Assembly (NCBI GenBank): GCA_000934665.2 | Contig: JYFJ02002771.1 | Span: forward strand, 1-51,187 | Direction of reading: 5' to 3' | From: Catajapyx aquilonaris | Lineage: Eukaryota | Length of the DNA: 51,187 nucleotides | Part shown: piece by piece, positions 14,760 to 43,900 of the stretch | Layout: every line of letters starts with the position of its first letter | How positions within the stretch are numbered: position 1 is the stretch's first letter | The notes under the pieces: generated by a model | What the model was told of the DNA's origin: nothing | Seen by the model: only the letters and a program-made list of their open reading frames with translations | The model's database searches: none | Made by a program: the position numbers and the translations under genes

Positions 14760-16763
14760 ATGGGTGGGCTGCGTCGTCGTCCGCATCCTATTTCCCATCC
14801 GGCGGTGGAGGCCCCTTTGTGCGACTCCTGCCGTCAGATGGACCTCGCCTTTTTTGACCCGAGCTGCCCCGGATGCCGGCAGATCCTCCGGGATGAATGC
14901 ACCACGACAGTAGCGGCCGTGTTTGCTATCCTGCGCCAGTGGGTACCGCAGACGCAGCGGAACGTGGGGATGCTGACGGAGGAGGTGCTGCGACGAGGTG
15001 CGCATGTGGACGATCGGGATAGTCTAACGGACATGACGCTTCTGCAGTACGCATGTAAGGCTGGGGCTAGCGGTGTTGGAGATGCGGATAGTGCGTCGAA
15101 AGCGGTGAGCCGACTGTTGACACTCGGTGCATCGCCTAGCAGGCGATGTCGATGGACCAGTATGACTGCGCTTCACTACGCTGCCTATTTCGACGTGGCG
15201 CCGGCTCTACGACTTGTACTTGATGCATGTAAAGGCAGCGGGATTGACGAGAGATGCTCCGAGTATGCAAACGGTGGGGCATTGCATTTGGCGGCGGCTA
15301 ACTTGTGTCTGGAAGCAGCCACCGTGTTAGTCCAGCGAGGAGCCGATTCAACGCTAAAGGACGACCATGGGCGAACAGCTCTCCGTAAGTGCTCACTGTA
15401 TACATTCCGGCTGTACAGTACAATCCGGCTAATTACAGAGTGTGTTCCCGATCCCGACGCATTCGCACTGGTACCGAACGTCCGTGAAGCAATCGAACGC
15501 CTCCGATCTATCCTACAACAGCAGCCGATTCCCCGCAACCCCACAATAAAATTACATGTCGGCCAGCGGATTCTGCTTGCTGGAACCAAGCCTGGTGTAC
15601 TAAGGTAAACAAACAAAGTCGCAAGTACACATCAACACCATTTATGAGTACCGGTACAAAAAAACACATTGCCTATAAATATGCGTTACAAATATTGTTT
15701 TGACTCTTTCTAGGTATTGCGGCACCACCAAATTTGCGGCAGGGATGTGGGCTGGAATTGAGCTGGACGCTCCGGATGGGAAACACTCGGGAACGGTGCA
15801 GGGGGTTACGTACTTCAAGTGCGCACCGAAGAAAGGTACGTTACAAACTTGTTAGACCCTAGCAATATTTCATTGCCTGTAAATCGACATGAAGATTGTT
15901 TTTAAAAAATGAAATAAATATTGCACAAATTTTTAAACATAATGCCCTATTCTCATGTGCACAGGATTTCAATCGAGGCTGTCCTACCTCTATGTAATTG
16001 TCCAGCAGCGTACAACTTGTATCTGTACGACCTTCCTGAACAAACAGGGCATAAGGGTCAAAGAGAAATGTAATTTTGGTATGTAGTGGTAATTGGCAGT
16101 GTGGCTACTTTTACAGGAATTATGGCTCCGGTGAGTCGTGTCACTCCGACGCCAACGCCGTCCCCGTCCAGTCTTCCGCCGTCCACTCCAACGCCTGATG
16201 TCCAGTGGCGAGTCGGACAGCGTGTGTTGATCCGATCCCGCCCTGGAACAATCCGGTTCGTCGGCGAAGTTCACTTCACTGGCGGCCGATGGGTCGGAGT
16301 TGCTTTGGACCGTCCGACAGGCCAGCATGACGGGACAGTCCGGGGGATCCGCTACTTCCGTTGCCGTCCACGCCACGGACTGCTCGCATCGACACGAACA
16401 CCGGGCGGCATAACGCCTGCACCGGCATCACTTCCGCCCACCTCCCCATCTCCGGCCCTCACTTCCATTGCGTCTTCGGCCGCATCCAGACGCACCAGCA
16501 TCTCAAAGGACTCCCGGTTCTGGCTCCACGAGGGAACGACGGTGCTTTACAAGCGGGAGGTGGCCACAGTGCGGTACGTGGGCCCAGTGCATTTCTCAGA
16601 CGGCAGCTGGCTCGGGTTGGAACTTAGGGAGAGGAAGGGAAGGCACGACGGGGAGGTCGAAGGAAGGAGATACTTCCAGTGCAGGCAAGGACACGGGGTT
16701 GTGGTCAGACCAAAGGCAGTGACGTCACATGGGATCAGCGGAGCCTTACTGGTTCCACCTTGA
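14760..16763 (+). CDS. CLIP4: CAP-Gly domain-containing linker protein 3/4-like (ankyrin repeats plus 3 CAP-Gly domains)
   Basis: FFDP...FAILRQWVPQ...DRDSLTDMTLLQYACKAGA...MTALHYAAYFD. CAP-Gly motifs GKHSGTVQGVTYF, GQHDGTVRGIRYF, GRHDGEVEGRRYF. Exons 14760-15384, 15439-15604, 15714-15835, 16117-16763; AATAAA at 16770. Start codon uncertain. Confidence 0.92.
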
Positions 16764-16817: not shown

Positions 16818-19800
16818 TTAGCTCACGGGACTAGTCTTCGACGAGCGGAGGCTGCTGCTAAGTTGGCTCCCAGAGCTGTAATGTACACATTGCAATTAAA
16901 AAATGGACAATACAAGGATTTCGTTTTCATCATACCTCCTACTTCTGGTGAGCCGTCCGATGGTGGTCACGGTGATCATGGGCATCAGCCTGTCTGTAAA
17001 CCGATGGTAGTTCCTCTCCAACTCACGCTGGTAGTCCCTCTGGTCTGGACCTATCAGAGTCTTATTCCTGCGAAGCGCGTCCGCACACCTGAAAAGATCA
17101 CGTCACATGTGAAGGTCAGCAATATCACACCTAAACAATGCACCACCTCTTGGAGAAGTCCTTAAAGCAGAGCCGCAGTTTGTTCTGGTGCTTCGACGGT
17201 GTCTTCTGTCCGTCAAGCAGATCCGACAGAAACACGTGAGCCACCTCCATGGGTCCCTGATTGACGGTGGTTCCGATGCATCCTTGCAGCACCATCTGCA
17301 GGATCTTCGGATCGGGCGGTTCCTGCTGAGTCGCAATAGCCAGCTCCACCGTCTTCTTCTGGATGTCCTCGATGGCCACCTCGATAGGGGTTAACACCAC
17401 CTGCTTCTTCCCCACGACCTGGATCCGGGTCTTGACGTACGGGAAGTGGCTGGAGGTCGTAACGATAGTCTTGCGCTTGTACTGCTCATGAAGGTCGCCA
17501 TGTGCACGGCCATCCGGGGTGAACGGAGTCGCATATATGAATCGCTCTGTGAACAAATTCGGTTTAGTAAACATCGCATCGCAGCAGGAAAAAAATACTC
17601 ACTGATATTATAGTTCTTATCAAAGTAGGTGATCCTCTCGCGATATTCGTACGGGTCGAAGTACGGCTCAACATATGTTATCTGTATGTAAGCCATATCC
17701 GTATCGAGCTTTGAAGGGTCGACCATGTTGGAGTCCTTAATGATGGCCACATTCTCTGGTCCGAATCGCTCCGAGTAGAAGCTCTCAAGGCGGCTGGATA
17801 TCTCGGGCAACTTGGTGAGAGTCGGCTCCTTGTACACGAACTCCTCGTTGTCTAAATCACCGAACTTGTTGCCGTAGAAGCCAACACGAAAGTACGTGCC
17901 GAACACTCGCTTCCCATGCAGCTGGTCGATGCGTGTGAACGCTTCGTGTAGTTTACTGCCAGAGATAAAATTGTTACCCATACGTTTCTTAGAAGGCGAC
18001 AGTGATACGTACCTGTGAATGTTAGCCAGTTTCTTGTAGTCGCGATTGGCTTCGGCGATTGGGATTAATATTTTGTACACCTCGTTCATGGCCTCGTACA
18101 TTCCAGCCTGTGGTGTTAACATCCCGCAATTAACATACAGCCGCAAAGCACTGAATAAAGCCGAAACTTACAATGTTAAACGAGCTGGCAGCCTGCTCCA
18201 ACAGTCCCAACAGCCCATTCTCGGTGAAATACTTTCCGGTGCAGATCCCTTCTTCATCCGGACTGACCACATCATCCGACACTGCACTCTCCTCAAGTGA
18301 GTTTGGAGACAGACGCTCGAAGCTCACTGCTCCGATGGGCAGGTAAGGTCTGTCCTCCAGCATATGGAGGTACTCGGTTACTAGAGCCGCACTGTGGATC
18401 AGACACATGGCGGCTTCCGCATGGTTACTCCGCTGCGGAAAGAAAGTATTATGTTATGCCTAGCCCAATTGTAGACGAGTGGATAGCGTGCCTCGGTGTG
18501 TTTCTGGGCCATGTTGGCAAGCCAGGTGAGACGGAGGTCAGGCGAGTTCTGGTAGCCCTTGGCGATCCGGTACATTAGATCCAGAAGCATCTCCGGATCC
18601 TCCTGGAATTCCTTCATCTTCACGGTATCGGATAGGATCATGTGCAAGTTGAAAACCAAGTCGCGCACCTGATTATGAGAACATGTATGTAATTATTATT
18701 CAAGCAATAATAAGTTCAGATGACAATGGCTTACTTGTTCAGGAAATGTGGTGTCCTGCAGTTCCGAATCCTCCTCCGCATAGACCAGTATGGTCTTGAG
18801 CGACCGTCGCAGCGACTCCTCATTGAACGTCTGGCTCGTTCCGACGAGTGAGCTCAACGACATGGTCACCTGCATCTTGACCCGTGCAAAATTCTGCCAA
18901 TGGAAAAAAACAACCAGTCAGCCACAAAGCGACTCTACCTAAAACTGAACACGTACATTTCCGGTCTCAAAATTCTGCCGCATGAGCAAGTACAGCGACG
19001 CAGAGGCCTGCGACCGCACGATGCTGATGCAGGAGCTGCAGTGCTTCAGCAGGCGGAGACACAGGTCGGCACACTGCTCCGTCTCCTCATCAAACAGCAG
19101 GCTTGGAAACTGAAAGGCACAAATCCAGGCAAGTCACTAACGAAGTGTACAGCACCGACACTCGAATCATCAGGTCAGACTGAAATCCACACAAAGTTAG
19201 TCATGAAGTTCAACTGAAGTCCGTTGTACCCTATGTACCCTAGTATTATTAGTTAAGTAGTTTTAATTTTACATGTAATTAATTAAGTAGTTAATTGGGC
19301 TAATTAATAAGGGTAATTAGTTTTAATTTCAGTTGTGATTAAGTACTCAATGGAGGTTATTAATTAGTTGTAATTAATTAAGTACTTAATGGAGGTAATT
19401 AGTAGTTTTAGTTGTAATAAATCAAGTTTGTAATGGCCAATTAGTTTCAATTTAGTTGTCATTACTTGGAGGAGTAATTATAACTCGTTGATAGAGGTGT
19501 TAACTGTCAACTAAAATTAAAACTAATTAATTGATTACCTCCAGTAACAAATTAATTGCTTCCACTAACTTAACTATAACATTAAAATTTATTAATTACC
19601 TCCAGTAACTATTACAACTAAAATTAACACTAATTAATTACAACCAAAAGGAATACGACTTAATTGACGAATATTAAAATTACTTATTTACAACTAAAAT
19701 TAAAATTACTTATTTACAACTAAAATTAAAATTACTTATTTACAACTAAAATTAAAATTTATTAATTACCTCCTGTAACTATTACAACTAAAATTAAAAT

Positions 19801-22800
19801 TTATTAATCGCCTCCAGTAACTATTACAACTAAAATTAACAATATTAATAATTAATATTACTTATTTACCACTAATATTAAATAAGACTGATTAACTATT
19901 ACCTCAATTAACTAAATATTGGGTGGAATCTTCGTCCCACTGCTAATTACTGCTAACTTAATTTAGTAACGAAAATTCCACTCTCAATGATTACCTCCAT
20001 TACCTAATTAATCACAACTGAAATTGAAACTAAGTGGGTTGAATTTTCGTCGTACTACTAGTTACTTTTAACTTAGCACTGCTAAGTATAGTGTAATGCA
20101 ATATGATACTGCTAAGTTAAAAGTAACTACTAGAACGACGAAAATTCCACCCAGTGTGATAAATATGTACACTAATTGTGTCAATTAATTAGCCAATTAA
20201 ATTATGTAATGAAATCAATTATAAGTAACTAATCCCTCAACACAAATCAGCATGTAGTGAGACAGTCTTGTATCCAAATTTCAAACTCCGCGCCTGGATC
20301 CAAAATGGCGGACCGTGCCCAAACCTCCTCTTATAGATATGACACCCCCCAAAATTAGGCCGAAAATCCTGAAAATGGGCCAACGACCCAGATAATCCAG
20401 GTGTGTAAAATGATCATTACTGACGCCCGACCCGGATAAGCCTCCGAGCGAGGCCGCGTGATGACGAATCAAATGTGTATGGCGTTCCAACACGAAAGGT
20501 GACCAATTTGGGGTTTCCACAGGCCGCGGCATAAATAGGTACTTTCCGGACAGTTGGTCTCCATGTTACCAGAGGCCGCTTGAGCTTTGCTTACGGAGCA
20601 ACAGACGGGACTTTGAATAGTTCAAATGTAGCTCCGGGAAAAGTCCCCGGACCAGATGGCAGCGAGTGCCGGCGGGAACACATGCTCTCGCTCCGTGTCT
20701 CCCTTGGCCCGACCAGAGGGCTGGGAAGAGAGAGAGGCCATCTCTCTCGGAGCCTGGCCTGTGAGGGGCCCCCCTCTGTCTGACCTTCGGGTTGGGCTAG
20801 TGGGGGGGGCCACGAGGCGTCTGGCGGGCTGGGAGGTGCCCTGGTCACATCACAGTTCCATGCAAAGGCCCCTCGAACACACACAGGGGAAACTCAAGGG
20901 GGCTTACTCTAAGCGGCCTCTTCCTTTTCTTGGAGAATTTGTCGAAATCGTGGTACTTTGCCCCCGACTTATAGCCACACCCTTTTTTGCCCAAACATGG
21001 AGAATTTGCTGAAATCGTGGTACTTTGCCCCTGACTTATAGCCACACCCTTTTTTGCCCAAACATTGAGAATTTGCTGAAATCGTAGTACTTTGCCCGAC
21101 TTATAGCCACACCCAAAGGTGGGCATTAGCTCCTCTAATCAGCTAATAGCTGAACCGAGCTGAACTAACTTTTCGCTAGCTGGTCAGCTGTTTTCTCTAA
21201 CTTTTCAGGCCACTTGCCGACTAATTAGCTCCCACTAAATTAGTGCCGCACTGCAGCTAAATAAATTCAGCTAACAAAATTCATTCGTGTTCCTGTCTCG
21301 CTGTCTGTTACTTTTTAATTTTTATAGTTGCATTGTTTCCACTCCAGGCAGGGATTAAAATAGACCAGCTTTACAGGGCTAGGTGCGGGATTGTAAATTC
21401 TCAGTCTACCTGGCCAAAACTTTTTTCCGATCACTTCAGTGCGCGGATTATATTATACCCACCAGTTTTTTAATCTACATTTTGCCTTGCCTGTCTTTGT
21501 AGCTTTCTTCTGAGACATATAACCTTTTTTCCTCTTTGGATTTGTTTATTACTTTTTCTTTTTGTATGGAACAGTAGCCTAAATAACAAAATAAGGCGTA
21601 TGTGTAGCAATGCTCTCTAGGCTTTATCAGCTCAGGTATGTTTTTTTAAGGGTCATGGAGAATAAGAAAAAAGGAAGTTAGCTGTTAGCATTAGCTTTAA
21701 CTAATTTTCTAGCCATTTAGCATTAGCAATTTAGCAAATCCAATTTTTTGTAGTTAGCTGATCAGCTGTTAGAGAAGCTGATTTTTCGGTTAGCTGTGCC
21801 CACCTTTGGCCACACCCTTTTTTGCCCAAACATTGAGAATTTGCTGAAATCGTGGTACTTTGCCCAACTGATCGCCACAGATGGCAGCTTACCTTGAACA
21901 CCAGCGACCGCTGCGTTGCAAACATGCTCTGCAGCACGTACGTGCTCTGGTTCCTCGACAGGGCGTGGAGCAGCACTCGCAGCACCACGCTCAGCAGTCC
22001 TTGCAGCTGGTCCAGAGACGACACCACCTGGATTATCAGCTCCAGGGTGTCCAGGATTATCATGTTGGCTTCCGTGGCCAGATTTCCGTCTATGTGGGCG
22101 TCCATCTCGATCTCTGCTTTGGGTCGCTCCGTCGGCTCCGTGCTGTGGCGCCAGGACAGCTGGTCCTTCCGCCAGCGGAGGCGGTCGCCCTGGGTGCTCG
22201 GCGATGGCGGGTTGCGGTCTGTGGACCATCAACAGTCATTAGTTCAATGGGAAACTCTGCCTACCAATTTACTTGACATACAGTACGAAGGGCTAGGAGC
22301 CCATCAGTTTCTTTCCAACAAAGCCTCAGTTTTCATTGTCGACAACAATGGCTGCTATGGCAATTCCGGTTATAACTGAGGTTCCAAGTTACACTGAGCT
22401 TGGTGGTACCGGCCCTTCGAGATCTTTCGATGTGCCAGGAAAATCGTATCGGTAAATGCATACCTTTCCGCCTCATCATCATTTCACTCCGAGCCGACCC
22501 TTGTCCTAAGATGACGTCCTCCAGTCTTGATTTGATGTCGCACGTCTTGATAAATGTCTGTTGGGCACATCGACGTATCGCCTGTTTACCCTGCGGAAAT
22601 GGCAGTGTTTGTAGTCGGGATCTGGCCAACACAGAGAGTTCATCGTACCTTGTATTCAAAGCAGGTGATGCAGATGTAGAGGAGCTCCAGCAGCTGGTGC
22701 AGTCGCAACGGAGGCATCTCGGACCACCACTGCTTCAGGACAGATGTGCTCACGTTTTTAACCACCCACAGAAAGCAGCTCAGAAGGTTGCGGGTCGTCT

Positions 22801-25800: not shown

Positions 25801-28800
25801 TTGGTGACACATACAAGATGTTGCGGTAAGTATAATGAGGCACGAAAACCTCTCGAGGAGGGATTTCAATCACTTCTTTGGTCGGCCGTCCCTTTTCATC
25901 TGAAATGCAACCGAATTATTAAAAGTCACTTCGAAACTCACGCTTCCTACGATCGCAGTTACGCTCATTGTACTCTACTTACAGTTTTCAGAATCGTCCT
26001 CTAAGCAGCACAATTATAAATGAAACAATCATTAGGGCAATAATCGTTATTTTACGCTAATTGAAAATTTTGTTAGATGCAACTCAGCTCTTCGGCATTA
26101 CGATGCTGTTACAAGAAAGGTGCAAAGTGATGAGATAATTATCTACAAACCTGGGTACGGATTGAGCCTGACTAGTTCGGAAGTGAGGCAATACTTCGGC
26201 TCGTCCGGACACGGAGAAATGTCTAGTTTGAGTATGCCAGGGATGCATTTCAGTCGCTTCAGTGCGGACGACGGCCTCTTCAAGTCTTGCAAAAACTTGT
26301 ACAGATCCTCATCCCTCAATTTGTCGCTCTCCTGGAAATGCATAAATTGGTTTAACATGTCGACAGACACATCGATTATGACATGGTGTACGAACCTGCT
26401 TGAAGAAACTGGACACGGTGAGTGTGACAGGCCTGAATATGTCGAGACTTGCGCCGAAATCTTCTGGCGACCAGCTTCGTCTTTTCTCCGACATGCTTCG
26501 CCTCTCCAGAGATCCGCGTCTGGTGAGAGAGCCTGTGTCTCCAGCTTTCTTGCGGAACTGGTCGAAGCTGCTCGTGCTTGACTTGCGATCTGTGCAAAAC
26601 AAAAACAGTACAATCAACAGAACGAATCGTTTGCTGCGCCACGTAATTTGGCCAATTCATCGCCTACAAAAGGGGCAAAGTGCGTACCCAAGCTGTTGGA
26701 TGCCATAGTTTCCTTGTCACTTCCCGAGTCCCTATCCAGACTATTGACTCCATTAACGATGTTCATCAGATAGATGGCAGTCCAGGCAAAGGGCATCCTG
26801 TACTTACCCAACCGGTCGCAACAGGCCACCGCATTTGACTTCACCTTGTCCCTATTCTAATGAGGAGAACATATGCTTACAGCATGCAACATGGTGTTCA
26901 ATAGTCGTAGAAACGAACCTTCTCATCCTTCATGTACGGCTCAGCACAGTCGGATATATCTCCTTGCAGCACTTTCTCCAGCTTAACCACCAAAAACAGA
27001 TCAGTCGATGGGTACGACACGTCGAAAATGCACGACCTGCTTAGAGTGCTGACGTCCTGATACGGCACATGCGATCCAAGCATTCTCTTTAGCGGCTCGG
27101 AGTTCATATCGAAGTAAAAGTTCTCCGAGATCTTCTTCTTTTCCTTCGCATCATACAGCGCCATCGACGCAAAAATTGGCTCTATCTCCAAGTCCAGGCG
27201 GAGGTTCTGGCACTTCACGAGAATCCGGTGCCCCATATGTTCGGCTGGAATCTCCGACGGCATCCTTCGCTCCACCATCTCGTCTTCTTCCTGTGTTGGA
27301 TACAGGTTGAACAGGGATTCATGCCGATGCTCGGTCCTGCGGGTTTCATTGAGCTGGTCAATAGTGTCGGCAGCCACTCGGTCCAACAGCGACGGGAGGA
27401 GGGAATCGCTTTGGGAGTTGCGGAGATCAAAACTGGCCCAGCTGCCTCGCGGAGTGTCCATCATATGAAGGGACTGCCTACTCGAGCCGGTATGAACCGA
27501 TTCCTACCCAGAGAAAGAGGAATTCTGTAATCGCACTTCTTCATTAAAAGGCAAAGACATTTACCCTATCCGAATCAATATCCGGCGAGCTATCCATTTC
27601 CTCAGTTTCGTCAGTGTCAATCTCGAACTCTTGCCTTGGAGTGTTTTGGAACATTGCAAGCCTATCATCTGACCGATCATGAACCCAACAGCTGCTGGAA
27701 TACTGCTGATAGCACCGGTTGTACACCAGCCAATCCGAGGTGTAGCTCCGTGCGCAGTCACGTACATGTCCATTGAGTTGGTTGCTGTGGAAAATTACGG
27801 TAATCATAAAGAAGCTGTCCCTGCAAAAGCGATGGGTTTGGTACAACGGTAGATACTTTACGACTTACAGTGGTTCCTCGGGAACTATGGGGGTTTGGGT
27901 CCTGAACTTCCGAGGTATGATCCCCACTTCCAAATCATCCGCCGGGAATTGGAGAATGTGTCGGAGGGGATCCCGATCAATGAGCATTTGGTGCTGCAGC
28001 ACGAATTCCTCGTAGTCCAACGGTTCCACCACATCGCACAAAGGAATCTGAAACAAACGGTGCAAATTTAATTACCGAAGAGTCCTCATGGCTTGCTTCG
28101 ATAACGTACATTTTCAAGTTGACAGTAATTTATACTGTGGTCAATTTAACAAGTTATTGCTGAGCGATGAAACTAATTGCCTGGGATATGACCACAATTG
28201 TTACTTTCGCCCCCAAACAATTGGTCTCATTGCTGAGCGAATCGCTCAAATGTAAACACAACATGGCCAACAAAAGTCTCTATAGAAACCAACTGTTGCC
28301 GGGAAATGATTGATATCAACATCCTTCCCTTGTTCTACTGCTTCTATTATCAAGCGCGATTTTCACCAATAAGTTATAAAGGAGAAAAGGTCTTCTAGAG
28401 AAGCAATGGGTAGCGCCATTAGCATAGGAACACTAGCGAAGAAGTTCAAGAAGCACAGCTCATCTCTAGTGCACGTAAAATGCGGCGGGTCCATCAGTGG
28501 AATGAGAGTGGCCGTTGATGGTGACGTATCGACAGTTCGAATCGCAAATGTAGGCCAGATCAATAATCTCAGCATCATTTCCGGAGCCAACGTTCATGTC
28601 AATTCGAACATCAAGCGCAACTGTCACATCAATAGTGACGGAAATTTGGAGAATCAGGTCTACACATATGCGGACGATATCGGCACCATCATCATCTCAT
28701 CAGGCGGCCCTGTCAGCGACGTAACTATTGAAGCTAGCGGCTCGATTAAAGTGGTGTCAGTCAACTCAACTGGCGATATTAGTCATGCCCATATGCATTT

Positions 28801-30564
28801 CTCAGACGACATTGACAGAGTGGCCATTAGGTCCACTGGTGACATAGAGGATACCCAGGTGGACTCGAGTGTTGGGATTGGCAGCACATTGGCTGTCATA
28901 GCAGGAGGATTGTACTACAGCAGCGTCCCAAACCGCACCGGAGTTACAATATCTGGTATGGGGAATGTCAGCGACGTTGACGTCAACAGCGCAGGAAAAA
29001 TCGGACTGGTCACGATTTCGGCTAAGCATCGCATCGAAAACTCCAGAAGCGGGAAGCAAGAGTTGTCAATGGTTGGCACGATCAACATTGCCAGCGATGG
29101 TGCCAGACCATTCATGAACAACTACCAGCTGTGAATCTGCCATTTTAATTGCAGACGACCATTTCGCAACTGTTCAAATTGTAAGTATTTTTATGACTTA
29201 CATTACGCTATTTATGTAAGCGGACTAATTGGTTAATTCTTACGAATTCCATGAAGACAACTTACAGACGATTGGAATGAGGAAGAACTGCTGATGCTTT
29301 TGCACAGCTCCCGATTGTACGAAGCGGCTGCAATTTGTCTCCGCACATCCGCTGCATGCTGCCTGAGGACAAGAAAAATTAATAATTAATCCTCCAGCCC
29401 TTTAATTAGTGTCTATTATGCCAATCACTTAAACTGTAATTACAACATCGTTCGAATAAACATTTTTCATCAATATATGACCATTGAATGAATCTAGTGC
29501 TTATTTTTAGCAGAAAAAATAGCCTAATTAATCTCCCAGCCTTTAATTATGTTAATTATGCTAATCACTGACATAATTAGAACATCTTTCGAACAATTTC
29601 ATCAATTTATGACCACAAATGAACCATTAACTGCTTATTTTTAGCACAAAAAATTGCCTAATTGACCATCCAGCATTTAATTATGTTAATTATGTTAATC
29701 ACTGATGAACGGCAATTAGAACATCGTTAGAACAATTTCATCATTTATGACCACAAATGAATTATTACAGTGCTTTTTTTAGCACAAAAAATAGTCCAAT
29801 TAATCCCCCCGCCTTTAATTATGTTAATTATGCTCATCACCGATGTAATTAGAACATCGCTCGAACCATTTCATCAATTTATGACCACAAATGAATTATT
29901 ATGAACTTATCAGTACCGTACTCATTTTTGAGCGGAAAAGCATCCCCCTCAATTAATCATAATTATGTTAATCATGCCAATCATTGGTGTAAATAGAATA
30001 GAATGTTAAATTATGTCCAACAATTCGATAGAATGTTAAATTATGTCCAACAATTCAATAGAATGTTAAATTATGTCCAACAATTCAATAGAATGTTAAA
30101 TTATGTCCCAACAATTCAATAGAATGTTAAATTATGTCCAAACAATTCAATAGAATGTTAAATTATGTCCAACAATTCAATAGAATGTTAAATTATGTCC
30201 AACAATTCAATAGAATGTTAAATTATGTCCAAACAATTCAATAGAATGTTAAATTATGTCCCAACAATTCAATAGAATGTTAAATTATGTCCAACAATTC
30301 AATACAATTCAATAGAATGTTCCTGTGTGTCTACAATTCCAAGTGAATCATTTATGTACTTATAGTGCCTAATTTTTTGTGAGTTAAAGTAGACCCCCCC
30401 CGAATGATTCCTAATTATGTTAATTACGCCAATCAATGATGTAAATTGAACACCGTTCGAAATATTACGACCCACAATATATTCTGCCCGTAGTTTTGAA
30501 TACACTCAATCAAGCCATCTTACTTGGGCAGCTTCTGTGCAAAAGCCCTCTGTCCAGCGGACAT
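16818..30564 (-). CDS. DOCK7: Dedicator of cytokinesis, DOCK-C subfamily (DOCK6/7/8; Zir-like) Rho GEF
   Basis: Start [24 protein letters not shown] (30564-30524, 29362-29266), [25 protein letters not shown]-1/C2 [15 protein letters not shown]-2 [10 protein letters not shown]...[30 protein letters not shown]. Probable last exon [19 protein letters not shown] ends at 16818; read-through of the last intron would give an alternative end. Confidence 0.97.
19245..20255. repeat. AT-rich minisatellite in fold-back arrangement with small nested inverted repeats
   Basis: TAGTTTTAATTT-type units (19245-19460) face their complement TTACAACTAAAATTAAAATT units (19510-19900). TGGGTGGAATCTTCGTC (19920) pairs with GACGAAAATTCCACCCA (~20136-20153). 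Lies within a 2.8-kb DOCK7 intron. Confidence 0.75.
20934..21878. repeat. 67-bp tandem repeat (~3.7 copies) interrupted by a MITE
   Basis: AGAATTTG unit starts at 20934, 21001 and 21068; the third unit resumes at 21809 after the insertion. Confidence 0.9.
21114..21808. mobile_element. Non-autonomous hAT-type MITE (695 bp)
   Basis: Perfect 12-bp TIRs CAAAGGTGGGCA / TGCCCACCTTTG, 8-bp TSD GCCACACC (21106-21113, 21809-21816), subterminal AGCTAA/TTAGCT repeats. Confidence 0.9.
28406..29134 (+). CDS. Intronless 242-aa ORF of 11-residue beta-strand repeats, nested antisense in DOCK7 intron 2
   Basis: ATG in GCAATGG context; regular xGx[IV]xx[V]x[IV]x[SA] units; lies entirely in intron 29265-28048; not a DNA-level tandem repeat. 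Confidence 0.7.
   Translation: MGSAISIGTLAKKFKKHSSSLVHVKCGGSISGMRVAVDGDVSTVRIANVGQINNLSIISGANVHVNSNIKRNCHINSDGNLENQVYTYADDIGTIIISSGGPVSDVTIEASGSIKVVSVNSTGDISHAHMHFSDDIDRVAIRSTGDIEDTQVDSSVGIGSTLAVIAGGLYYSSVPNRTGVTISGMGNVSDVDVNSAGKIGLVTISAKHRIENSRSGKQELSMVGTINIASDGARPFMNNYQL
29385..29990. repeat. Degenerate ~135-140-bp tandem repeat (4-5 copies, further remnant at ~30330-30480)
   Basis: TTTAATTATGTTAATTATGC..AATCAC...AATTAGAACATC...TTTCATCAATTTATGACCACAAATGAA recurs, with unit starts near 29387, 29528, 29661 and 29800. Confidence 0.8.
29998..30320. repeat. 30-31-bp minisatellite, ~10 near-identical copies
   Basis: Head-to-tail ATAGAATGTTAAATTATGTCCAACAATTCA with no spacers. Confidence 0.95.
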
Positions 30565-30943
30565 TCTGTCCCGTCCAAAACTGTCCCCAGAAATGTCCCA
30601 CAAAATAAATTAAAATTCGACACTTTTTTTTTCCTTCTTTAGCAGACGGACATATTGGATCGAACACCACGGGTTCGAAAACGACGTAGCTGTTTCTCTA
30701 GTTGCTAATACGCAGCTTAATAAGCTTGACAGTAGTACGTAGCTGTTAGATTCGATTTTCCTTTGTCGAGCGGCGTGCTGTTTTTTTTTTCTTTCTTTCT
30801 TTTTTCTTTTCAGGAGTTGGCGGCGTCGAAATTGTGTGTTTTTTTTTTTTCTTTCCCCCCCTTTTGAGAAGAGTGTTTTTTAAAGATGGTTCCCCGTGCG
30901 GTTAAATAGTGGGCGAAGTTCTTTTTAAATTGTTGTATTTATT

Positions 30944-31756
30944 ATGCTGCCTTCCACTGGATACTTCAAGACCATAAACTGCCCGTTCTACGACAGCGGC
31001 TTGTGCGAGAGGCCCTACTGCCACTTCAGACATGCAAAGGAAGGTGAATATTCGATTGGAACATCCACACGATTGGAACGGTTTATGAGTTAAATCAGTA
31101 CATTTTAATATTTAAAAAATGTGTGTGGAGAAGCATTGGCTTCATTTGGGATCATACATGCGGTGAGAAGGTCCACCTTGGCATGTCGAAGGAACAAAGG
31201 AACACAAAAGGATATGGAGCGGCCGGTGGATCCGTTGCTCGTTTATACACGAGGCCGCTTGATCCCGTGGTTTAATCCACAGTGTTAATTGCAGACGGCA
31301 GCAGAAGCTGGCCGTTGGGTCAGCCGTACGTTTCGATCAGTGGGATCGCCTTCTTCGCCAAATGACTGAACATACTCAAGTGTGCTCGCTCCTTTTCGTG
31401 TATCGTATTTAATATGCTGTATTGTTTAAAATTATTATATTATTATACATTTTTAGACACGTAATATAATTAAAATGTAATATATTATGTATAATAATTG
31501 AGGGCGACATGGTGGCCGAGTGGTTAGCGCCGCAGCCTTCCACCTCTAAGGTCCCGAGTTCGATCCCCGGGTCGGACGGAGGATACTTATGTGGATAGAG
31601 TTTCGATGGGTTCTCTCCGTGTTCGCGTGGGTTTTCTCGGGGTTCTCCCGTTTCCTCCCACTATCAAAATCCATCACATTTCAGGCAAATGATTAAAGTC
31701 GGTAATTCAAAAGATGATCCCCTATAAGAGACCCAAGGGGCCTATCACGGGGTATC

Positions 31757-31819
<63 letters not shown>

Positions 31820-32786
31820 GATGTATAATAATTTACTATTGTGTATATACGAGGGGTGTAAATAAAATAGTGGCAACTACTGTACTTAATTACTTGGGAC
31901 TTAGCTTCAAATTTTCAGAGTCCTTCAATGTAGTCATCAGCATTATTGTGTAACACTCGTCATTAGCGATGTGGAAGTCGAAGGATGCCGTTGGCATCCC
32001 TGGTTTGGTTGATGTTTCGTATAGAGCGGTTTAAAGCGCGAATTAGGTCTGGGATAGTCATACCCAGACGTTTCATGAGAATGTTCAGGATAGTCATACT
32101 CGACAAGTCGGTCTCATTGGCTAACTCATGTACTGTCTACCTCCGATCGTTCTCCATCAATGCGGAAGCAGCAGCCACTTGTCCTTCACTTGCATTTGGA
32201 TGGGGCTCGTATGTCCCCGTTTTTCCTTCCCTGACGGAAGGCTTTTGCCCACCTTGCAATCGTTCTATATGGCAATGCATGCATGTTCCCCACAAGCCTG
32301 TAAAAGCCCTTCATGACAAAATTGTCAATTTTTAACCAGCAACTTTGCTCAAATCTGGAAAACATCACCTTTAGATTGGTTGAGCTCACGTTATTCTTGT
32401 AACTGATCCTGTGCATATTGAGGTGGGACGATCCCATTATGTCCTGAGGTTAGATCAAGACCTAACCTATCTATGTGGCATAAGCGGTGTCCTTCCTACA
32501 TTTCACTGATTTTCTAGAGATGAGTTGCCACTATTTTATTTACAGCCCTCGTATAGTATAATTCTATGATTACAATTTATTAAATGTTTGACAATTATTT
32601 TGTATTATATTTTATATAGTAAAACCTCGATATAACGCTCTTCAATGGACCACCCAAAAGCAGCATTATACACGGGATACACGCGAGAAAATTTTCCTCA
32701 TGGAAATGATCGAGGGACAGGAAAAAATTGGTATTAAAAGCAGGAAAACATTATATGCGGGAGCGTTATATCAAGGTTTTACTGTG

Positions 32787-32854
<68 letters not shown>

Positions 32855-35800
32855 CCACACTGGAGGGAACGAAGCCCTTTGAAGGGGGGTATTATTTTTA
32901 TTTCTTTTTATATTACTTTTGCAATATATACCGTATGTTATAGTATTTTATATATTGGTGTGTTTTATGTTATCCTTGTAATTTTTATTTTTTATATTTT
33001 TTGTAATTGTTATATTATTTTGTTGGATATTTTATATTACTCTGTATAATCATAATATATTGGGTATAACAGACTGATTTTCTCAGTCCCTTACAGTCTG
33101 CTATATCTTGAGTATAGCGGTACAAGAGGGGCAATCTCATAATAACTTTAAGAACCTATTGTGGGCATTGGGTATACTCTCCACTTGATTTGCTTGACCT
33201 TGCGGTATCGCTTTGTTGTGTACGTTATGGCCGTTCACACTGCCCAGTGATCAGAACACAGGACTCAAAAATTTATTAAATGGACAACACGATCGGATCA
33301 TCCTATAAATGCATTTAGGAAATGGCGCATAATTATACACCATCCTTCTCGTATGAAAAAGTTAGATCAATGCACAATAAGATATCTGTGAGCAACATCC
33401 GCATCTTCAACCTTGATCGAGCAACATGGGCTGACTTCTGTGATGAAAGAGGAAATGACAAGGACTTTTTTCCAAATTGCCTTTCTATGTTGAAATGCTG
33501 TGGGTTCATTTTCTCATATCAGCCTCCTGATCAACCACATGTAATGATAGAATGTATTTTTTAAAATGGTAGATCTCTCTTGCTCAACTTCACACATCTG
33601 CCAAGGACAAGGAGCTAAAAATACAGGAAACTCTTAAAAAAGTGATAATTGGCTTCAATTGTGACAATTAGAATAATTCAGAAGAAGGTGAGTTGGTGGA
33701 GAATAAGTAGTGTTTGCGATGTAATTTTTCAAATGCCAACATTGCATTTGTCAGATTGATAAAAATGAACTTCATTTCACTTTTCAAGCCGGTGTTGCAT
33801 ATTTGCTGCCTATTGTTGATATCAGCGCTTAATTCGAATTCGATTAACTCGGCCCGGATTCAATGTCGTACTAATTCCTGGTCTTTTCAGAAGAGCTTCA
33901 GGCTTCAACGTCTCAACTGGCAGCTGCTAACGAGAAGGGCGGGAACGAAGCTGCCTTACAGCAACTTGTGTCCGAAGCAGTCAGAAAAGTGCTGCTTGAA
34001 AGGAAGGTCCTGCCTGAAAAGTCAGATGGATCTGAAATCGTGTCAAAGGTTATCCAGACCATATCGCAGCCAGAAACGAGCAAACAGGTGCCAAGCTACA
34101 AGCCAACTCCGATTGCTCAGCTCCGACGTCTGCAGAGTGGAGCAACCAAGCGACGTTCGCCGTTGGAGTATAAGCCTTCTAAGAAGACCCGAGAAGGAAA
34201 GAGCAAATACTCTCCGTCTCATCCAAACTCAGAGTCGGTTGCAGGTTACAGCCCAAACTATGGGGAGAAAGGAAGTGTGTCGTACACACCCAGCAACATC
34301 ACGGATATTGACCTCAAGGGAAGCCAGTATGTCCCGAGCGGATCGGATATTAAGGACGGTGGAGTGGATTACAAGCCAACTAGTAAGGATTTGACTAATC
34401 ACAGTCAGGCGGAGTATTTGCCCATTACTGGCAGCTCTAGTGCCTCCAATTTGTATGTGCCGACAGACATATCAAAGCTTGGTAACGTGCTTACGATAGA
34501 GAATGACATACTGGAAAAGGACGAGGACAGCGATCCTGGAAATGACTTCGACCTTTTTGAGCAAGTTTTGTCCGAGGGACCGAAGAGCGAGGCAGGTGTT
34601 GTGAAAAAGACGAACCATACCGTTATTTACGCTCAGAACGAACAAGGTAGTTTAAAGCGGTATAGTGATTTGGCATCTGGAAAGTACGTACCTAAGAAAC
34701 CCAGCGAAAGTATTAAGAGTGTCACAAGTGCCGGTTGTGAATCTCGTAATGAAAAGAAGCCCAGTGAACCTTCAGCGTCCAATTTTGACAAGACAAATGC
34801 GGACAAAGATGCAGCTATCAAGAATGACTCGGAGACCAAAAGACTTAAAGAGCCATGTTCTAAACCTGCCAATGAAGAGAGAGCAAGTAAGACTTTACGA
34901 CTGAATAAAGAGAGTGATAACAAAGCAAGTAATGAGTGTAAGAAGGCCGTGAAAAGTAAGGATGAACACAAGTCAAGTAAGGAGAAAGTTAGAGACTCAC
35001 ACAATAACTCGGAGGTAAAGAGGGACAAAGATGAACATAAGTTGCGTAAAGAGAAGGAGCTAACGAGGAGTAGGGACTCGGATAAGAAGAACGAGAGCAA
35101 GGAGCACAAGGTTAAAGAGTCGAGCAGTAGGTCAAGTAAGGAGAAGAGTTCAAGTTCATCTCGTCACAAGTCCAGCAAGTCGCACAGTTCCAGCCACAAG
35201 GAATCGAAGAGTAAGGACCACAAAAGCAGCAGTAAGGACCGGAAGAATGGCGATAGAGAGAGGAAGAAGGACGATAAGGACAGGAAAGACGACAGAAAGC
35301 GGAGAGAGCACAAGTCCAACAGCCATTCGAACCACAAGCACAAATCGAAGAAGTCGGACGATGACAATAAGAAGGGAACGACTTCCGCTCACGAGACGAC
35401 CAAAGGGAAGAAGGAACCTTCTCCGATCCTCGTCGACATTTTTGCTGGTGAGTTTTTGCTGTTAGTGAGGTCCGGCTCGCATTAATTTCTGGTTATTTGT
35501 TTCAGTTGGCAGTAACGTTGGCTTTGATGAACCGCCTGATTCTCCCGAGATGGACAGCTACAGTTTCATGTCTGAACTGGAGGACAACTCGGATCCAGAT
35601 GATGACGAAGTGACCCGTGAATGCTACAGGATCTTCCAGGAGTACAAGCCGGACAAGAACAAACAAGACAACCATAGCCAGAAGAAGGTACGATTAACTG
35701 ATTGACGTACTCTGCGAACCTTTTAACTAATAACGAATTGTTTCAATGCCGCTTGTTCGGATATGTACTCATTTTACGACTGCGATGGTGAGTTCACATG

Positions 35801-38800
35801 ATCATTTTTGTTACTGTTTCATGCAACAATGTATTTTTTTTTGGCAGGTACAACAGCTGGAAAGCAAGGCGCAAGTGGAGGATCCGAAGCCAGTATCGGG
35901 AAAGCAACGTGTGGCCCACAACGCTGCGCATGATTTTGTTCCGAAGATTCCGAGGCCACCGAAAGCCGTGCCCAAACCCTCAGCTTCTCAGGTATTTCGA
36001 GTGTTACGTTAATCGTGCTTTACATTACATGTGAAGCCCACATTAGCTGAGGAATGTCAGCAACATTTTAATTCGGCGGATACCGAAACATGAGAAGTTC
36101 ATTGACTTACAATGTTTGGTAATTAAGAATGTTACTACAATGCAGGATTTTTTTTTTGTACTGAGTTCATGTTTCATTCATGTTGTTGGAAGTGCAGGGC
36201 TTTGACCCCTGCTCACATCATGATGTAATGAAAAAAAAAAGGGGGGGGGACATGCTTAGTTGTTTATCTGGCTTGGCATGCTGAAACAAGAGATGCTGAC
36301 ACAAGCAGGGTCAGCCACCTCTGAAGGAGCGGGGAAGAAAAAGGGCGTTTGGAATTTTTAAGGGAGTGACTCAGTCTGCTGGCTTCACTTCCAGGTTATG
36401 GTTGATAGATGGAAGAAGGTCCAGGAGATTTGCCAGCAACCGGAGGCTGCACCAGTTCCAGTTGTTGCCGCAATTCCTGTCGATGTGAGGCCGACTCCGG
36501 GATCATCGCTGCTTAGAAGCGGCGTTGTTAGTTTCACTCAAGGTGAGTCGGTAGGCGATTGAATCTTCAGAGTGTGTACCTACGTACTTTACAGGAAAGA
36601 AGCGGATAGCTCATGTACCCAATGTGACGTCACTGTTGATGGCCAAAACCCAGGTGAAGCCCACAGAAACCAAACCGGACGCGTCCACCATTGCCCAGAC
36701 TGTCTCCAAGGGCGGAAAAAGAGTGGCTCACATTCCAACTCAGGTAAGAAAGAATGAGCTTGAAAACAACATTTTTGTTCAGTACATGGTGACAGATGGA
36801 GACAAGAATTGAGGTCATTCCTTATCAGTGATATCACACTAATTAGCTCACATGCTGAGCAATAGTTGAGTCATTGCAAGGTGAGCTGTTGGAGTGTTCA
36901 CATGTGATTCCTGTTCCAGGAGGTGCTCCAGCGTCCTACGATATCGGCTGAGTTTGGGTCCAAGGTGCCTGCAAATGTACGCCAACGATACCTCAACTCA
37001 TTTGTAGACGAATGTCTCAAGCTGTGTCCGACTCAGCAGGAAGCCTTTGATAGGGTGAGACAAAGTGTTACCGTAACTCGAGAGGTTAACATCGTCTCCA
37101 CTAAAGTCATGCAGTTTCCCGGTTTATTTTTATGTACAATAACAGGGCTCGAATGGAGAAGCCATAATCGTCTGGTCATGAAAACGTTACACGGACGTAT
37201 GATTTTTTGGGTCATTTTGTCAGCAATAGTCATGTAACGAGTGTACGAAAGAGTCAGCTGTTCATCATTTGTGATTATTATTATGATATTAATTTACTGT
37301 CACGTAACGAGTGTGCGAGAGAGTCAAGTCTTCATCATTTATTATTATTTTTATTATTAATGTTGGAAAACCCGGGTAACCTAAATCAACAGCTGTCTTT
37401 GGTGACGACTCACTCATGTGGTGTGTATAATTTAAATGGAAAAAAAAATTTGGCTGCCGTATTTAGCGGAGTAGCTCGTCAAGAACAACCTTCTACGGCT
37501 TGGTCATGCATACTGCATGGTCAATGTTTCATTCGCTGGTAAATATATATATTTTTAAAAAATAATGTAGTTTTTGTGCACTTAATGTTTGGAGGAAGCC
37601 TACGCAGAGTGAGAAAAGTGTTAATTTTTTTTGTGCGACTTGTATGATTCAAAAAGTGTAAAGGTTAATCAATAATTTGTGTCAGGCATGTTTTTCTCAC
37701 TGTATGTAAAGCTATTTTTTCACGGAAGAAAGTACCGTGTGCTTTCGTAAGAATGAGGATTGTTCTATGGTGATTAAGAGGAAACGGCTTATCAAGTATA
37801 GTGCGACTACAAAGGAGTAATGACAAGTAATTACTGACGGAGCCTGGCACATAATGGGTTAGAACGAGGGGGATCCATTATCACGAATGAACGAAGTCAT
37901 AGTTTGATAAAGCTTGTGCCCATTTTAGGGTATGCAAAATAATTTTTATGTCCCGATTGCATCACATTTAGGCAACCACCTTCCTTATGGTGCCTTTGGT
38001 TGTTTGCATACTTGTCAACCCTTTGTGTCTTTGTCTTTTCTGACCTTGGGTATTGTTTTTGTCAACAGGCGATACAGGAGGAGTTGAACTGTTACACTCG
38101 GTGCACTACTCGAACTGTCTACCTCAACGTTGCCGTGAACAATATTAACAGACTCAGGAAGGAGGTGGAGTGTGCCTCGACTTCTCCCCTCAAGGCAATT
38201 GAAGGTAACAACTGGATGAAAGGTCAAACTCTCTGGAATGTTAATAGCATAATATTGTCGTGTTGTGTCATATTTTGTCTTTGTTTCACAGAAGCAGTAG
38301 CTGCAGGCTCCAGTAGCGGACCCAACAGAACAGTGTCCCACATGTCCATCCTCGCAGGAAAAGGTGGTGCTCGCAACAGCTGGAGCATAGAGCGAGCAAC
38401 CCGCCGTTCCATGCCTGACCAAATATCGGACGCAGAGATGTACCGCCTCTTGAGTCGTTATATTCTCACTCCCGAGCAGCTGAGGGACAACGGCTTTCCA
38501 AGACCTGACCCCAGCGAGAAGGGCCGCGCTTTAATTCTCTCCACGGAGGTGTGTCAGAAGACGACGCATCTTGCCAATCCCTTCAAACGGATATGCGGAA
38601 GATGTCAGACCATGTATGCTGTTAACAAGCAAGGAGTGCAGGTGAGTTTGTGTAGATCTGCATGATTCTTCCACGCTACACCGGTTTTGTTGCTAATCTT
38701 CGTACTAAAGGCACGGTGCTTATGTTACGCAGCTGAGTGAGGAGCCGTGCACGCATCACTGGGGCCGGCAGTACAAGCGGAGAGGAGCCACGGGATGGGA

Positions 38801-40959: not shown

Positions 40960-43900
40960 ATGCAGCGTGTCGTATGGTTCATCATACTGCTTGGACTTGG
41001 CCGGGCTCAAACGACGACTGAAAGTACGACAGATCCAGCAGTGACCACCGAGGAGGAATCGGCCACAAAACCGGTCATGAGCATAGCTCAAGCGCTCCTT
41101 CCGACGTCTGGACCACAACAACAGCAACAACAGCAACCTGCCAGTCCGACCAAAAATGAAAGTTTGAGCAAATGCGCCCAAATTCAGCCTCAAATTGGAT
41201 TGCGTCTGGACCAGGTAAGTTCAACGTAATCAATCTATCTATCTAACTAATTAATACACTTTTGGAACCGACTTTTGGATCGACATACCGACAAACTTTC
41301 CCTTTAATATTATTATGGGGAGGTGAAGTGGCAAACGCACGCGCCCACGGATATTATAAGGTCCCGGGTTCGATCCCCACCCTGGGTTATCCCACCTGTT
41401 ATCCGTGCGGAGTTGGGCCATCTCTGGCTTCATTTCGGGTGGCAATTTCCGACAGAATGGGCCACCCGGGGGAGCTCACAAAATGACCATTAGAGACATT
41501 GCACTTGCACTTTTGCACATCCCCTCCTACCTACCCTGGAGTAATTATTTAAGCTCTTAATTATTTCCGATGGTGGTAATCCACCCCCCTCAAGGGTCCC
41601 AATGGGGTAATGCAAATAAATAAATTATTATTATTATATTATTATCTCGTTTATTTACCATTTCATTATTTAATATTGATTAATATTGTAATTAATGAAA
41701 GCTTAAATAATAGTAAAATAATATATGAATATATAAAATAATGTTAAATGAATGAGATCGAGCGAAGCGAGGGTTATTCTGGGTGAGCGAAGCGAGTCTT
41801 CTTTTTTCTCTCTAGTTCCTGTACTTATACATATAAAGCATGTTCGTTTGTCGGTTCCAAAAGTACTGTATATTAGTTAATTAATGAATCCGGAATTAAA
41901 TGGAGCGTAAAATCGACGTTTTATTATATACAGTACAACGTATTTATTTCAATTTATTTTTTTGGCTGGCAATGTTTGGTGCATGTTTGCGTGTGACCTC
42001 CTCCTCCTCGACTGATTGATTGTCTTCATCATCAGATAGGAGGCGAATGGTTCATCCGGAGTCCATCAGCACCGGACGATACGTGCGGTACGGTGAGCAT
42101 AAAGCCGGCCCCGGATTCCCGAGTGCTCCTGCAGATCCGGAGTGTCCAGTCGCCCAACGCGTCTCTGACCCTCAACCTGACCTCGTCCGACTCGTCTCCT
42201 TCGTCTCCTGTTCAATGGAGATTCAACGACCCCAAAGGTAACGACGTAGCAAGCAAGAACGGTACACAATGCTGATGATGACGCACTCTTATGATATGTT
42301 GCGCAGGTTCGCCAGACAACGGCGGAATCTACGTGGTGACCAAGGCCAACGACAGCGTCGCGTTGTTGCAGATGTGCAGCGCAGGCGGGAACGACACCGT
42401 GTTGCTGACGAGGGCATCCATCACGCCTTTCCCGTCAAGGGCATCGTCGCCTGAGGTGATTTCATAACCCATTACACACTGACAATGCGCGCGCAACCTC
42501 CAACATCAGAATGGGAGGAGCCAATCATGCGCACACATCTTCAAACTTTAGAAGGGGGGGTTAAATATGCGCGCGCAACTTCCACCATCAGAAGGGCAGG
42601 AGCTAAAGATGCCCACGCAGCTTCCGACTTTAAAGTGGGAGGAGCTAAACATGCGCGCGCACTTGCAACTTTAAAGTTGGAGGAATTAAAGATGTGCATG
42701 CAACTTCCACCATCGGAAGGGGAGGGACCTAAGCTGCGGGCGCATCTTCCAACATCAAAGGGGAGGACGAGTTAGAGATGCCCACGCAGCTTCCGACTTT
42801 AAAGTGGGAGGAGCTAAACATGCGTGCGCACTTGCAACTTGTTGGAGGCGTTAAAGATGTGCACGCAACTTCCACCATCAGAGGGGGAGGAGTTAAATAT
42901 GCGCACGCGCATCTTCCAACTATAAAGTGGGAGGAGCTAAAAGATTCTCGCGAAACTTTAGAAGGGGAGAAGCCAATGATGCGAGCGCATCTTCCAACAT
43001 CAAATGGGGAGGAGCTAAAGATGCTCAAGCAACCTCCCACTTTAGAGGGGGAGGAGTTAAAGATGCTCGAGGAGCTTCCAACTTTGAAGTGGGAGAAGCT
43101 AAAAATGAGCACGCAACTTCCGCCATAATAAGGGGTGGAGCCAACGGTGCGCGCGCAACTCCCAACTTTAGAAGGGGAGGGACCAAAGCTGTGGGCGTAT
43201 CTTTCAAAATCAAATGGGGAGGAGCTAAAGATGCGCGTGATACTTCCAACTTTAGAGGGGGAGGGACCAAAGCTGTGGGCGTATCTTTCAACATCAAATG
43301 GGAAGGAGCTAAAGATGCGCATGGTACTTCCAACTTTAGAGGGGGAGGGACCAAAGCTGTGGGCGTATCTTTCAAAATCAAATGGGGAGGAGCTAAAGAT
43401 GCGCTTGGTACTTCCAACTTTAGAGGGGGAGGGACCAAAGCTGTGGGCGTATCTTTTAACATCAAATGGGGAGGAGCTAAAGATGCGCGTGATACTTCCA
43501 ACTTTAGAGGGGGAGGAGCTAAAATGAGCACGCACTTCCAACTTCAAAGGGGAGGGGCCAATGTTGCGCGCGCAGCTTCTAACTTCAACGTGGGAGGGGC
43601 TAAAAGTTGGGCTCGCTTTGTCAAGCAATAATTAGAGAAGTCCTCTAATAGCAGGTCTGTTTTTAATTGTTTAATTATTAATTACAGGCTAGGGCAGCTT
43701 GCTTGAAGTCTCAAGCTTCTCTGATCACGGCCGCGGGGTCAAGGGCGGCCATAAAGGAGCCTGCCCTTCAGCTGGCCCTTTGCAGCATGGCCCTGCAGTG
43801 CATTGCAGGAAGACCCAACCGTCTTCCGCACGCAACGAGCGGCGCGGGTTGGTTCGGACAGTACTGGACCAGCACACCGGATTACATCGGAGGGTACGGC

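Follow-up and report, generated by a model that had tools for sequence, protein, structure and literature searches.

A stretch of 51,187 nucleotides (nt) from Catajapyx aquilonaris (assembly GCA_000934665.2, contig JYFJ02002771.1, positions 1 to 51,187 of the forward strand; here called the window) raises the question of what an uninterrupted open reading frame (ORF) for a 242-residue protein represents when it lies inside an intron of a DOCK-C/D gene, on the strand opposite to that gene. A first-pass annotation of this DNA read the ORF as a nested antisense gene for a possibly myristoylated beta-solenoid of unknown family, built from 11-residue repeats. Our analysis demonstrates that the ORF is more than a product of chance, as judged by its length, its codon usage and its repeat. 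In the explanation that we consider most likely, it is an orphan gene whose product is a repeat-built beta-solenoid and represents a new family.

The stop-to-stop frame around the ORF spans 253 codons. A frame of at least this length appeared in one of 20000 mononucleotide shuffles of the host intron, for which the median longest frame was 89, and the analytic expectation is 0.0018 frames of 253 open codons per 51-kb window. Among the 112 stop-to-stop frames of at least 100 codons in the window, nine others reach 253 codons; six of these nine carry Pfam domains, and the other three have no Pfam match but a coding-like codon score. Under a codon-usage log-likelihood model trained on 12 long ORFs of the window, the ORF's frame scores +0.078 bits per codon and the other five frames all score below zero, which places the ORF within the leave-one-out range of the training ORFs themselves (-0.048 to +0.241 bits per codon). 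The GC content at third codon positions (GC3) is 0.58, compared with 0.51-0.66 in the 12 training ORFs, and the overall GC content is 0.49, compared with 0.39 and 0.33 in the two intron flanks. We conclude that the ORF is quite probably a real coding gene.

The encoded protein is periodic. Measured against 500 shuffles, its BLOSUM62 self-similarity peaks at two lags, 11 (z = 5.70) and 22 (z = 5.14), with no other lag from 1 to 44 above z 2.6, and the strength of the lag-22 signal leads us to favour two units per coil over three. The strict unit pattern x-[GD]-x-[IVL]-x-x-[IVLMA]-x-[IVLMA]-x-x occurs ten times in the translation; the matching units form three blocks, each in register, and degenerate sequence separates the blocks. 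Over its whole length the protein appears to comprise about 20 degenerate 11-residue units with the consensus [ST]-G-D-[IV]-S-x-V-x-[IV]-x-[SA]. The units quoted in the first-pass annotation are all present in the translation, and its statement that the pattern is retained in the protein and lost in the DNA holds quantitatively. Tandem Repeats Finder detects no DNA tandem repeat in 28300-29250, even at a minimum score of 30. The excess of identities between units resides in codon position 2 (z 2.92 at lag 11 and 3.86 at lag 22), is weak in position 1 (1.27 and 1.59) and is absent from position 3 (-0.21 and 0.74), while identical residues one or two units apart use the same codon in 22 of 69 pairs, against 22.1 expected. 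This distribution is what old duplications under protein-level selection would leave, and is suggestive of such a history rather than proof of it.

Structure prediction points to a regular fold for these repeats. Run on the single sequence, AlphaFold2 yields an all-beta model with a mean predicted local distance difference test score (pLDDT) of 63.2 and a predicted template-modelling score (pTM) of 0.63, the block means being 73-80 for residues 21-80, 53 for residues 81-90 and 70-76 for residues 91-150. A second run, given a 21-row alignment, is likewise all-beta and reaches a mean pLDDT of 63.9 and a pTM of 0.64 (five models, 55.8-63.9); in this model a strand starts every 11 residues, pLDDT is 77-87 over residues 71-150 and it falls below 50 over residues 1-19. 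The alignment consists of repeat-bearing matches of doubtful homology, so that the second run serves as a robustness check and not as independent proof. Repeat block B, where the prediction is best, is also where the protein matches the metagenomic fibre-like repeats described below.

A VIA-align comparison with 48,161 chains returns almost exclusively parallel beta-helix or solenoid chains, along with a few leucine-rich-repeat solenoids. Matches of the single-sequence model (model 1) include 3p4g (Z 13.4, root-mean-square deviation (rmsd) 3.4, 194 residues aligned), 5n8p (Z 13.0, rmsd 3.7, 199 aligned) and 3lyc (Z 12.7, rmsd 2.8, 171 aligned), and those of the alignment-based model (model 2) include the curli protein CsgA (8c50; Z 15.3, rmsd 9.4, 229 aligned), 9ozd (Z 14.5, rmsd 3.3, 229 aligned) and 3lyc (Z 13.9, rmsd 4.5, 180 aligned); in repeat folds a Z below about 13 may mean only a common arrangement, a caution that tells against our reading of the fold, and the values, which lie in the range common among such folds, suggest a beta-solenoid as a class and no particular family. 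A general solenoid likeness extends to the right-handed parallel beta-helices, among them pectate-lyase-like proteins, tailspikes and two-partner-secretion domains (Z 11-14.5, rmsd 2.8-4.6 over 170-233 residues), from which the ORF protein differs in sharing 4-17% sequence identity, with many unrelated rows tied. Among these beta-helices, three Parabacteroides structures described as putative adhesin/pectinase (3lyc, 3jx8 and 3ljy) resemble the predicted fold at Z 11.1-13.9. The beta-solenoid that the first-pass annotation had proposed is thus predicted by the models at moderate confidence (mean pLDDT 63-64, pTM 0.63-0.64), and we consider it the likely fold of the ORF protein.

Ser, Gly, Ile and Val account for 48% of the residues of the protein, which has two Cys and no Trp. 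Its first 26 residues are basic (five Lys or Arg, no Asp or Glu) and the remainder is mildly acidic (14 Lys or Arg, 21 Asp or Glu). The highest 19-residue Kyte-Doolittle mean is 1.34, under the usual transmembrane threshold, and the basic residues come after, not before, a hydrophobic stretch of eight residues, so that there is no signal-peptide-like arrangement. With neither a signal peptide nor a transmembrane helix, the product should therefore be cytosolic. The N-terminus, M-G-S-A-I-S-I, agrees with M-G-{EDRKHPFYW}-x-x-[STAGCN]-{P}, which we take to be the PROSITE-type pattern for N-myristoylation, and both the MGxxxS start and the KKFKK cluster that the first-pass annotation had read as an anchor are present as sequence motifs. 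Src, MARCKS and the retroviral Gag matrix have myristoyl-plus-basic membrane anchors. The ORF protein resembles these in its Met-Gly start, the Ser at position 6 and four Lys within 16 residues; the likeness is confined to this short N-terminal motif, and the rest of the protein is unrelated. A membrane anchor of this type is a tentative prediction from the motif, and we place it a little short of an even chance.

The expectation of an unknown family was borne out by our searches. An hmmscan of Pfam-A at E up to 10 returns only DUF7524 (E 0.048, 13.9 bits against a cut-off of 27), a sequence search of the PDB returns nothing at E up to 10, and PHROGs and NCBIfam return noise only (E 0.045 and 0.81). 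None of the 414 candidates from a word-indexed homologue search of 5.8 billion clusters has E <= 0.01; the top cosine score in the ESM Atlas is 0.77, which is at the level of a lead only and comes with no usable named cluster; and a full-text search of the literature found no described family of this kind. The first-pass annotation had likened the ORF protein to bactofilin (presumably Pfam PF04519) and DUF4097, small proteins of beta-helical repeats whose turns carry G-D-[IV] motifs. Neither profile is matched in Pfam at E up to 10, and the repeat period of 11 or 22 residues sets the ORF protein apart from both. Chains of either family are absent from the Foldseek and VIA-align rows shown, an absence that excludes no family.

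Sequence relatives were found in metagenomes. A phmmer search of 1.84 billion representatives gives two matches, both metagenomic: P0002 (668 residues, E 1.1e-8), for which residues 89-149 of the ORF protein are the best-matching stretch, and P0003 (231 residues, E 7.2e-4). In both, the N-terminal part is a run of 11-residue repeats that follow A-[ST]-G-D-[IVL]-x-x-V-N-[IVL]-x almost perfectly. Tail-fibre or baseplate domains are present in P0002 and in P0006, a member of its cluster: both carry BppL_N and Peptidase_S74, the endosialidase chaperone. P0002 also has tail and baseplate PHROG matches outside its repeat region; on the strength of these matches we regard P0002 and P0006 as virus or phage fibre-like. 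BLASTP places residues 22-210 of the ORF protein in register with the P0002 repeats at 57 bits, compared with 18.5 on average and at most 27.3 for 200 composition shuffles, 20.8 for the reversed sequence, and 20.0 on average and at most 31.6 for a crude phase-preserving shuffle. A profile built from three sequences retrieves 23 proteins; all seven that were inspected show the same SGD-x-x-V-N repeat, and one further match carries Peptidase_S74.

The ORF protein and these metagenomic proteins (P0002, P0003, P0130, P0134, P0138 and others) share their unit length and are near-identical in consensus ([ST]-G-D-[IVL]-x-x-V-N-[IV]-x-[AS]). The metagenomic proteins have near-perfect repeats and flanking fibre or baseplate domains or signal-anchor-like N-termini, whereas the ORF protein has degenerate repeats in three blocks, a myristoylation-type N-terminus and a neighbourhood of animal genes. 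The nearest known thing is accordingly an unnamed repeat class of viral structural proteins, and at the level of the motif the likeness is real. Within that metagenomic class itself (P0002, P0003 and P0130-P0138), the SGD-x-x-V-N-V-x-A repeat region has no Pfam match or solved relative, and in PHROGs it gives weak matches to unannotated families only (best E 0.0013). The two-sheet functional-amyloid solenoids CsgA (of curli) and FapC offer a second likeness: their coils of about 22 residues are strand-turn-strand units of two half-repeats, and CsgA heads the VIA-align rows for model 2. Curli proteins are secreted bacterial fibres. FapC (9u4u) is the top Foldseek row, at E 0.7 and a template-modelling score below 0.1, and with the rmsd of 9.4 for CsgA neither is a reliable fit; the ORF protein has no Pfam match to the curlin repeat profile. 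Beta-helix proteins of the RP2/TBCC/CAP type are eukaryotic and in part myristoylated; as a candidate family they were rejected, with 1k4z, 6fm2, 2yuh and 5cya among the Foldseek rows only at E 3-6 and no Pfam match to TBCC or CAP.

The genomic setting of the ORF is summarized in the table. The host intron is bounded on the minus strand by GT at 29265-29264 and AG at 28049-28048, and the ORF, which is on the plus strand and antisense to the DOCK gene, takes up 60% of it. Pfam identifies the host: positions 2-56 of the 113 in the DOCK_C-D_N profile are matched at 27868-28050 (E 2e-20) and positions 57-113 at 27544-27864, and further minus-strand domains follow in DOCK_N (26898-27503), DOCK-C2 (24087-25313) and DHR-2 (17391-18167). 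The intron had been labelled as intron 2 of DOCK7; the DOCK-C/D subfamily is upheld by these matches and DOCK7 itself is not, while the ordinal is plausible. The putative exon directly upstream of the intron keeps phase with the next exon only when read in a frame lacking an ATG, and a pyrimidine tract with the candidate acceptor precedes it, and for these reasons one more exon probably lies further upstream; this piece is too short for Pfam and gives no match there. Our findings agree with the description of the ORF as apparently without introns and as nested, in antisense orientation, within an intron near the 5' end of a DOCK-C/D gene. A pyrimidine-rich AG some 9 nt ahead of the ATG raises the possibility that an untranslated upstream exon also belongs to the ORF.

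Other origins for the open frame were rejected. An exon of a minus-strand gene does not fit, as the minus-strand frames under the ORF reach at most 85 residues; three minus-strand ORFs beneath it have no Pfam match. For a transposon, there are no terminal inverted or long direct repeats flanking the ORF and no second copy in the window. A retrocopy had been suggested earlier, and we see neither a poly(A) tract behind the stop codon nor flanking repeats. Besides the ORF, the DOCK gene harbours a full-length gene for RNase MRP RNA, likewise nested and antisense, which sits between minus-strand DOCK exons (20572-20919, plus strand; Rfam RF00030, 95.4 bits, E 1.9e-25, model positions 1-266 of 266).

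Table. Coordinates of the ORF, its sequence elements and the surrounding host gene in the window.
Feature	Position	Strand	Basis or description
Candidate intronless gene (P0001)	28406..29134	+	ATG to TGA, 242 residues; ORF list and translation
N-terminal 17 residues	28406..28456	+	Gly2 and Ser6 fit the N-myristoylation pattern; basic cluster K12, K13, K15, K16
Repeat block A, three units, residues 27-59	28484..28582	+	Starts at 27/38/49; periodicity and pattern scan
Repeat block B, six units, residues 89-154	28670..28867	+	Starts at 89/100/111/122/133 by scan; 144-154 read directly in the translation
Repeat block C, two units, residues 185-206	28958..29023	+	Starts at 185/196; pattern scan
Host DOCK-C/D intron, 1218 nt	28048..29265	-	Splice dinucleotides and phase
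DOCK exon directly downstream of the intron (host direction)	27868..28047	-	Encodes the start of the DOCK_C-D_N domain
Putative DOCK exon directly upstream of the intron	29266..29362	-	Predicted from phase and candidate acceptor AG 29364-29363

Several observations count against an expressed gene for a folded, lipid-anchored solenoid. Expression is presumed from the sequence, in which the signals of a gene are poor. A TATAAA lies only about 25-30 nt upstream of the ATG, which leaves almost no leader, and the first canonical AATAAA lies about 320 nt past the stop codon, beyond the upstream DOCK exon of the host. The exact protein is absent from a collection of 15 billion proteins, and hence from its annotations; no orthologue or paralogue was found in the protein collections or in the window, and purifying selection between species would be conjectural. 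A protein language model gives the sequence a recognition score of 1056, where 91 of 100 proteins from known families reach 2300. As to the fold, two of the five single-sequence models collapse (35.6 and 26.7), no residue attains a pLDDT of 90, the C-terminal third is mostly below 60, the confidence overall is moderate, and Foldseek finds nothing at E <= 0.001 in the PDB and BFVD; as to the anchor, the myristoylation pattern is short and common. The missing annotation, homologue and RNA support, the unconvincing core promoter and poly(A) signals and the low recognition score favour a non-functioning gene, that is, an untranslated or decaying frame such as what is left of an expanded 33-bp repeat, or a defunct gene copy that is still open, and the scanning of many windows will by selection yield some rare long ORFs. 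We nevertheless hold a dead frame to be unlikely. The rarity of a 253-codon open frame (0.0018 expected per window) argues against it, the frame-specific codon signal and the raised GC3 match host exons, and a periodicity retained at codon position 2, with position 3 random, is the mark of lasting selection on the protein and unlike that of a neutrally decaying DNA repeat; the regular solenoid predicted in silico points the same way.

The metagenomic relatives raise another possibility, in which the repeat region was acquired horizontally from the shaft of a virus or phage fibre and is now domesticated or fossil; it would form a trimeric fibre-like rod and not a single-chain solenoid, and the eukaryotic N-terminus would have been added later. 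It is consistent with this history that the only matches among the 1.84 billion representatives are P0002 and P0003, the former with fibre and baseplate domains, that the in-register alignment of 57 bits stands against a shuffle maximum of 27.3, that the seven inspected of the 23 profile matches all have the SGD-x-x-V-N repeat, and that the gene has no introns. However, the likeness is limited to a short repeat motif at 24-34% identity, for which convergence of a strand-turn unit is equally possible, and Pfam identifies no fibre anchor or chaperone domain in the ORF protein. No virus-like gene lies nearby, the scanned Pfam-bearing neighbours being ordinary animal genes; tblastn against 50,697 phage records gives no match; contigs from IMG/VR, metagenomes and prokaryotes contain matches to the pattern but no tblastn relative; and the BFVD fold search, at the threshold given above, returns nothing. 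The host-like codon usage and GC3 and the saturated synonymous repeat sites mean that any transfer would be old. We rank a native, lineage-restricted gene above viral acquisition because of these host-like codons, GC3 values and saturated sites, and because there is no virus-like neighbour, no flanking repeat and no match on a phage or viral contig; a fibre origin is in our judgement improbable. The horizontal acquisition put forward by the first-pass annotation is accordingly left open but weak, as the relatives share the repeat motif alone and the codon usage is that of the host. We think it slightly less probable again that the ORF specifies an expressed, N-myristoylated and membrane-tethered animal beta-solenoid that is either a domesticated viral fibre module or an independent, curli-like and possibly self-stacking invention. 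The first-pass annotation also mentioned ice-binding solenoids. An ice-binding protein like those of beetle, moth and midge would suit an arthropod beta-solenoid of short period, and for model 1 the first VIA-align row is the Ca-dependent antifreeze domain of Marinomonas (3p4g). Unrelated beta-helices score within 1 Z unit of that domain, which ranks ninth for model 2. The antifreeze proteins of insects are secreted and carry regular ladders of Thr or Cys, and the ORF protein has no signal peptide or other secretion signal, no T-x-T motif anywhere in its sequence and hence no such ladder, 5.4% Thr and only two Cys, which makes ice binding extremely improbable.

We favour a real, lineage-restricted gene, apparently of a single exon, that is nested on the opposite strand within an intron near the 5' end of the DOCK-C/D gene and encodes a cytosolic, possibly lipid-anchored beta-solenoid; taken as a whole, this proposal has in our view about an even chance of being right. 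In such a protein a short, flexible and basic N-terminus (MGSAIS...KKFKK) would be followed by the repeat body, in which each 11-residue unit would contribute one turn and one beta-strand and the units would stack into the solenoid. Gly2 would be myristoylated co-translationally, and the myristate together with the Lys cluster would attach the protein to acidic lipids of the inner leaflet, at the cytosolic face of the membrane. In the mode of action that we consider most likely, the solenoid would extend from there as a stiff, mildly acidic rod that could serve as a scaffold for partners or stack with others of its kind end to end.

The remainder of the window holds a number of other features. 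Directly upstream of the DOCK exon are two tandem arrays, at 29383-29901 (134-bp unit, 3.8 copies, 81% match) and 29997-30308 (30-bp unit, 10.3 copies, 96% match), both in an AT-rich region with a GC content of 0.35-0.41 over 29001-34000; ATT and TAT microsatellites lie at 31758-31819 and 32788-32853. Three long open frames have coding-like codons and no Pfam domain: 2702-4636 (plus strand, 644 codons), with hydrophobic segments that suggest a membrane protein; 5502-7115 (minus strand, 537 codons); and 33875-35485 (plus strand, 536 codons), the C-terminal end of which is extremely rich in Lys and Ser. Recognizable neighbours are an ankyrin-repeat protein (14751-15608, plus strand), Elongin-A-binding protein 1 (EloA-BP1; 37943-38665, plus strand), cyclin-H (47874-48734, plus strand) and, as weak matches, an SPB4-like helicase C-terminal extension (42729-43631, minus strand; E 2.3e-5, below the Pfam cut-off) and an ionotropic-receptor-like ligand-gated channel (49793-51187, minus strand; E 3.1e-4). 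The cyclin-H ORF matches 564 proteins at E <= 1e-10; among the best 120 of the 564, the named rows are from insects of many orders, a tick and a barnacle, none is above 70% identity, and the named best matches are insect cyclin-H. These matches place the source as an insect or a close arthropod relative without a near relative in the protein collections. The gene-dense layout and short introns suggest a compact genome.

Beta-solenoids with very short repeats are common in bacteria and phages and occur in a few secreted arthropod antifreeze proteins, and a cytosolic, lipid-anchored animal example would be unusual. Should the ORF be unexpressed or confined to one species, it would be a curiosity of a single genome, and its interest is moderate until expression or conservation is shown. 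If it is expressed, it would represent a compact case of a structured repeat protein that arose and was kept within the intron of another gene, it might exemplify the transfer of a structural module from a virus to an insect, and it would provide a natural rigid rod scaffold with a defined 11-residue pitch.

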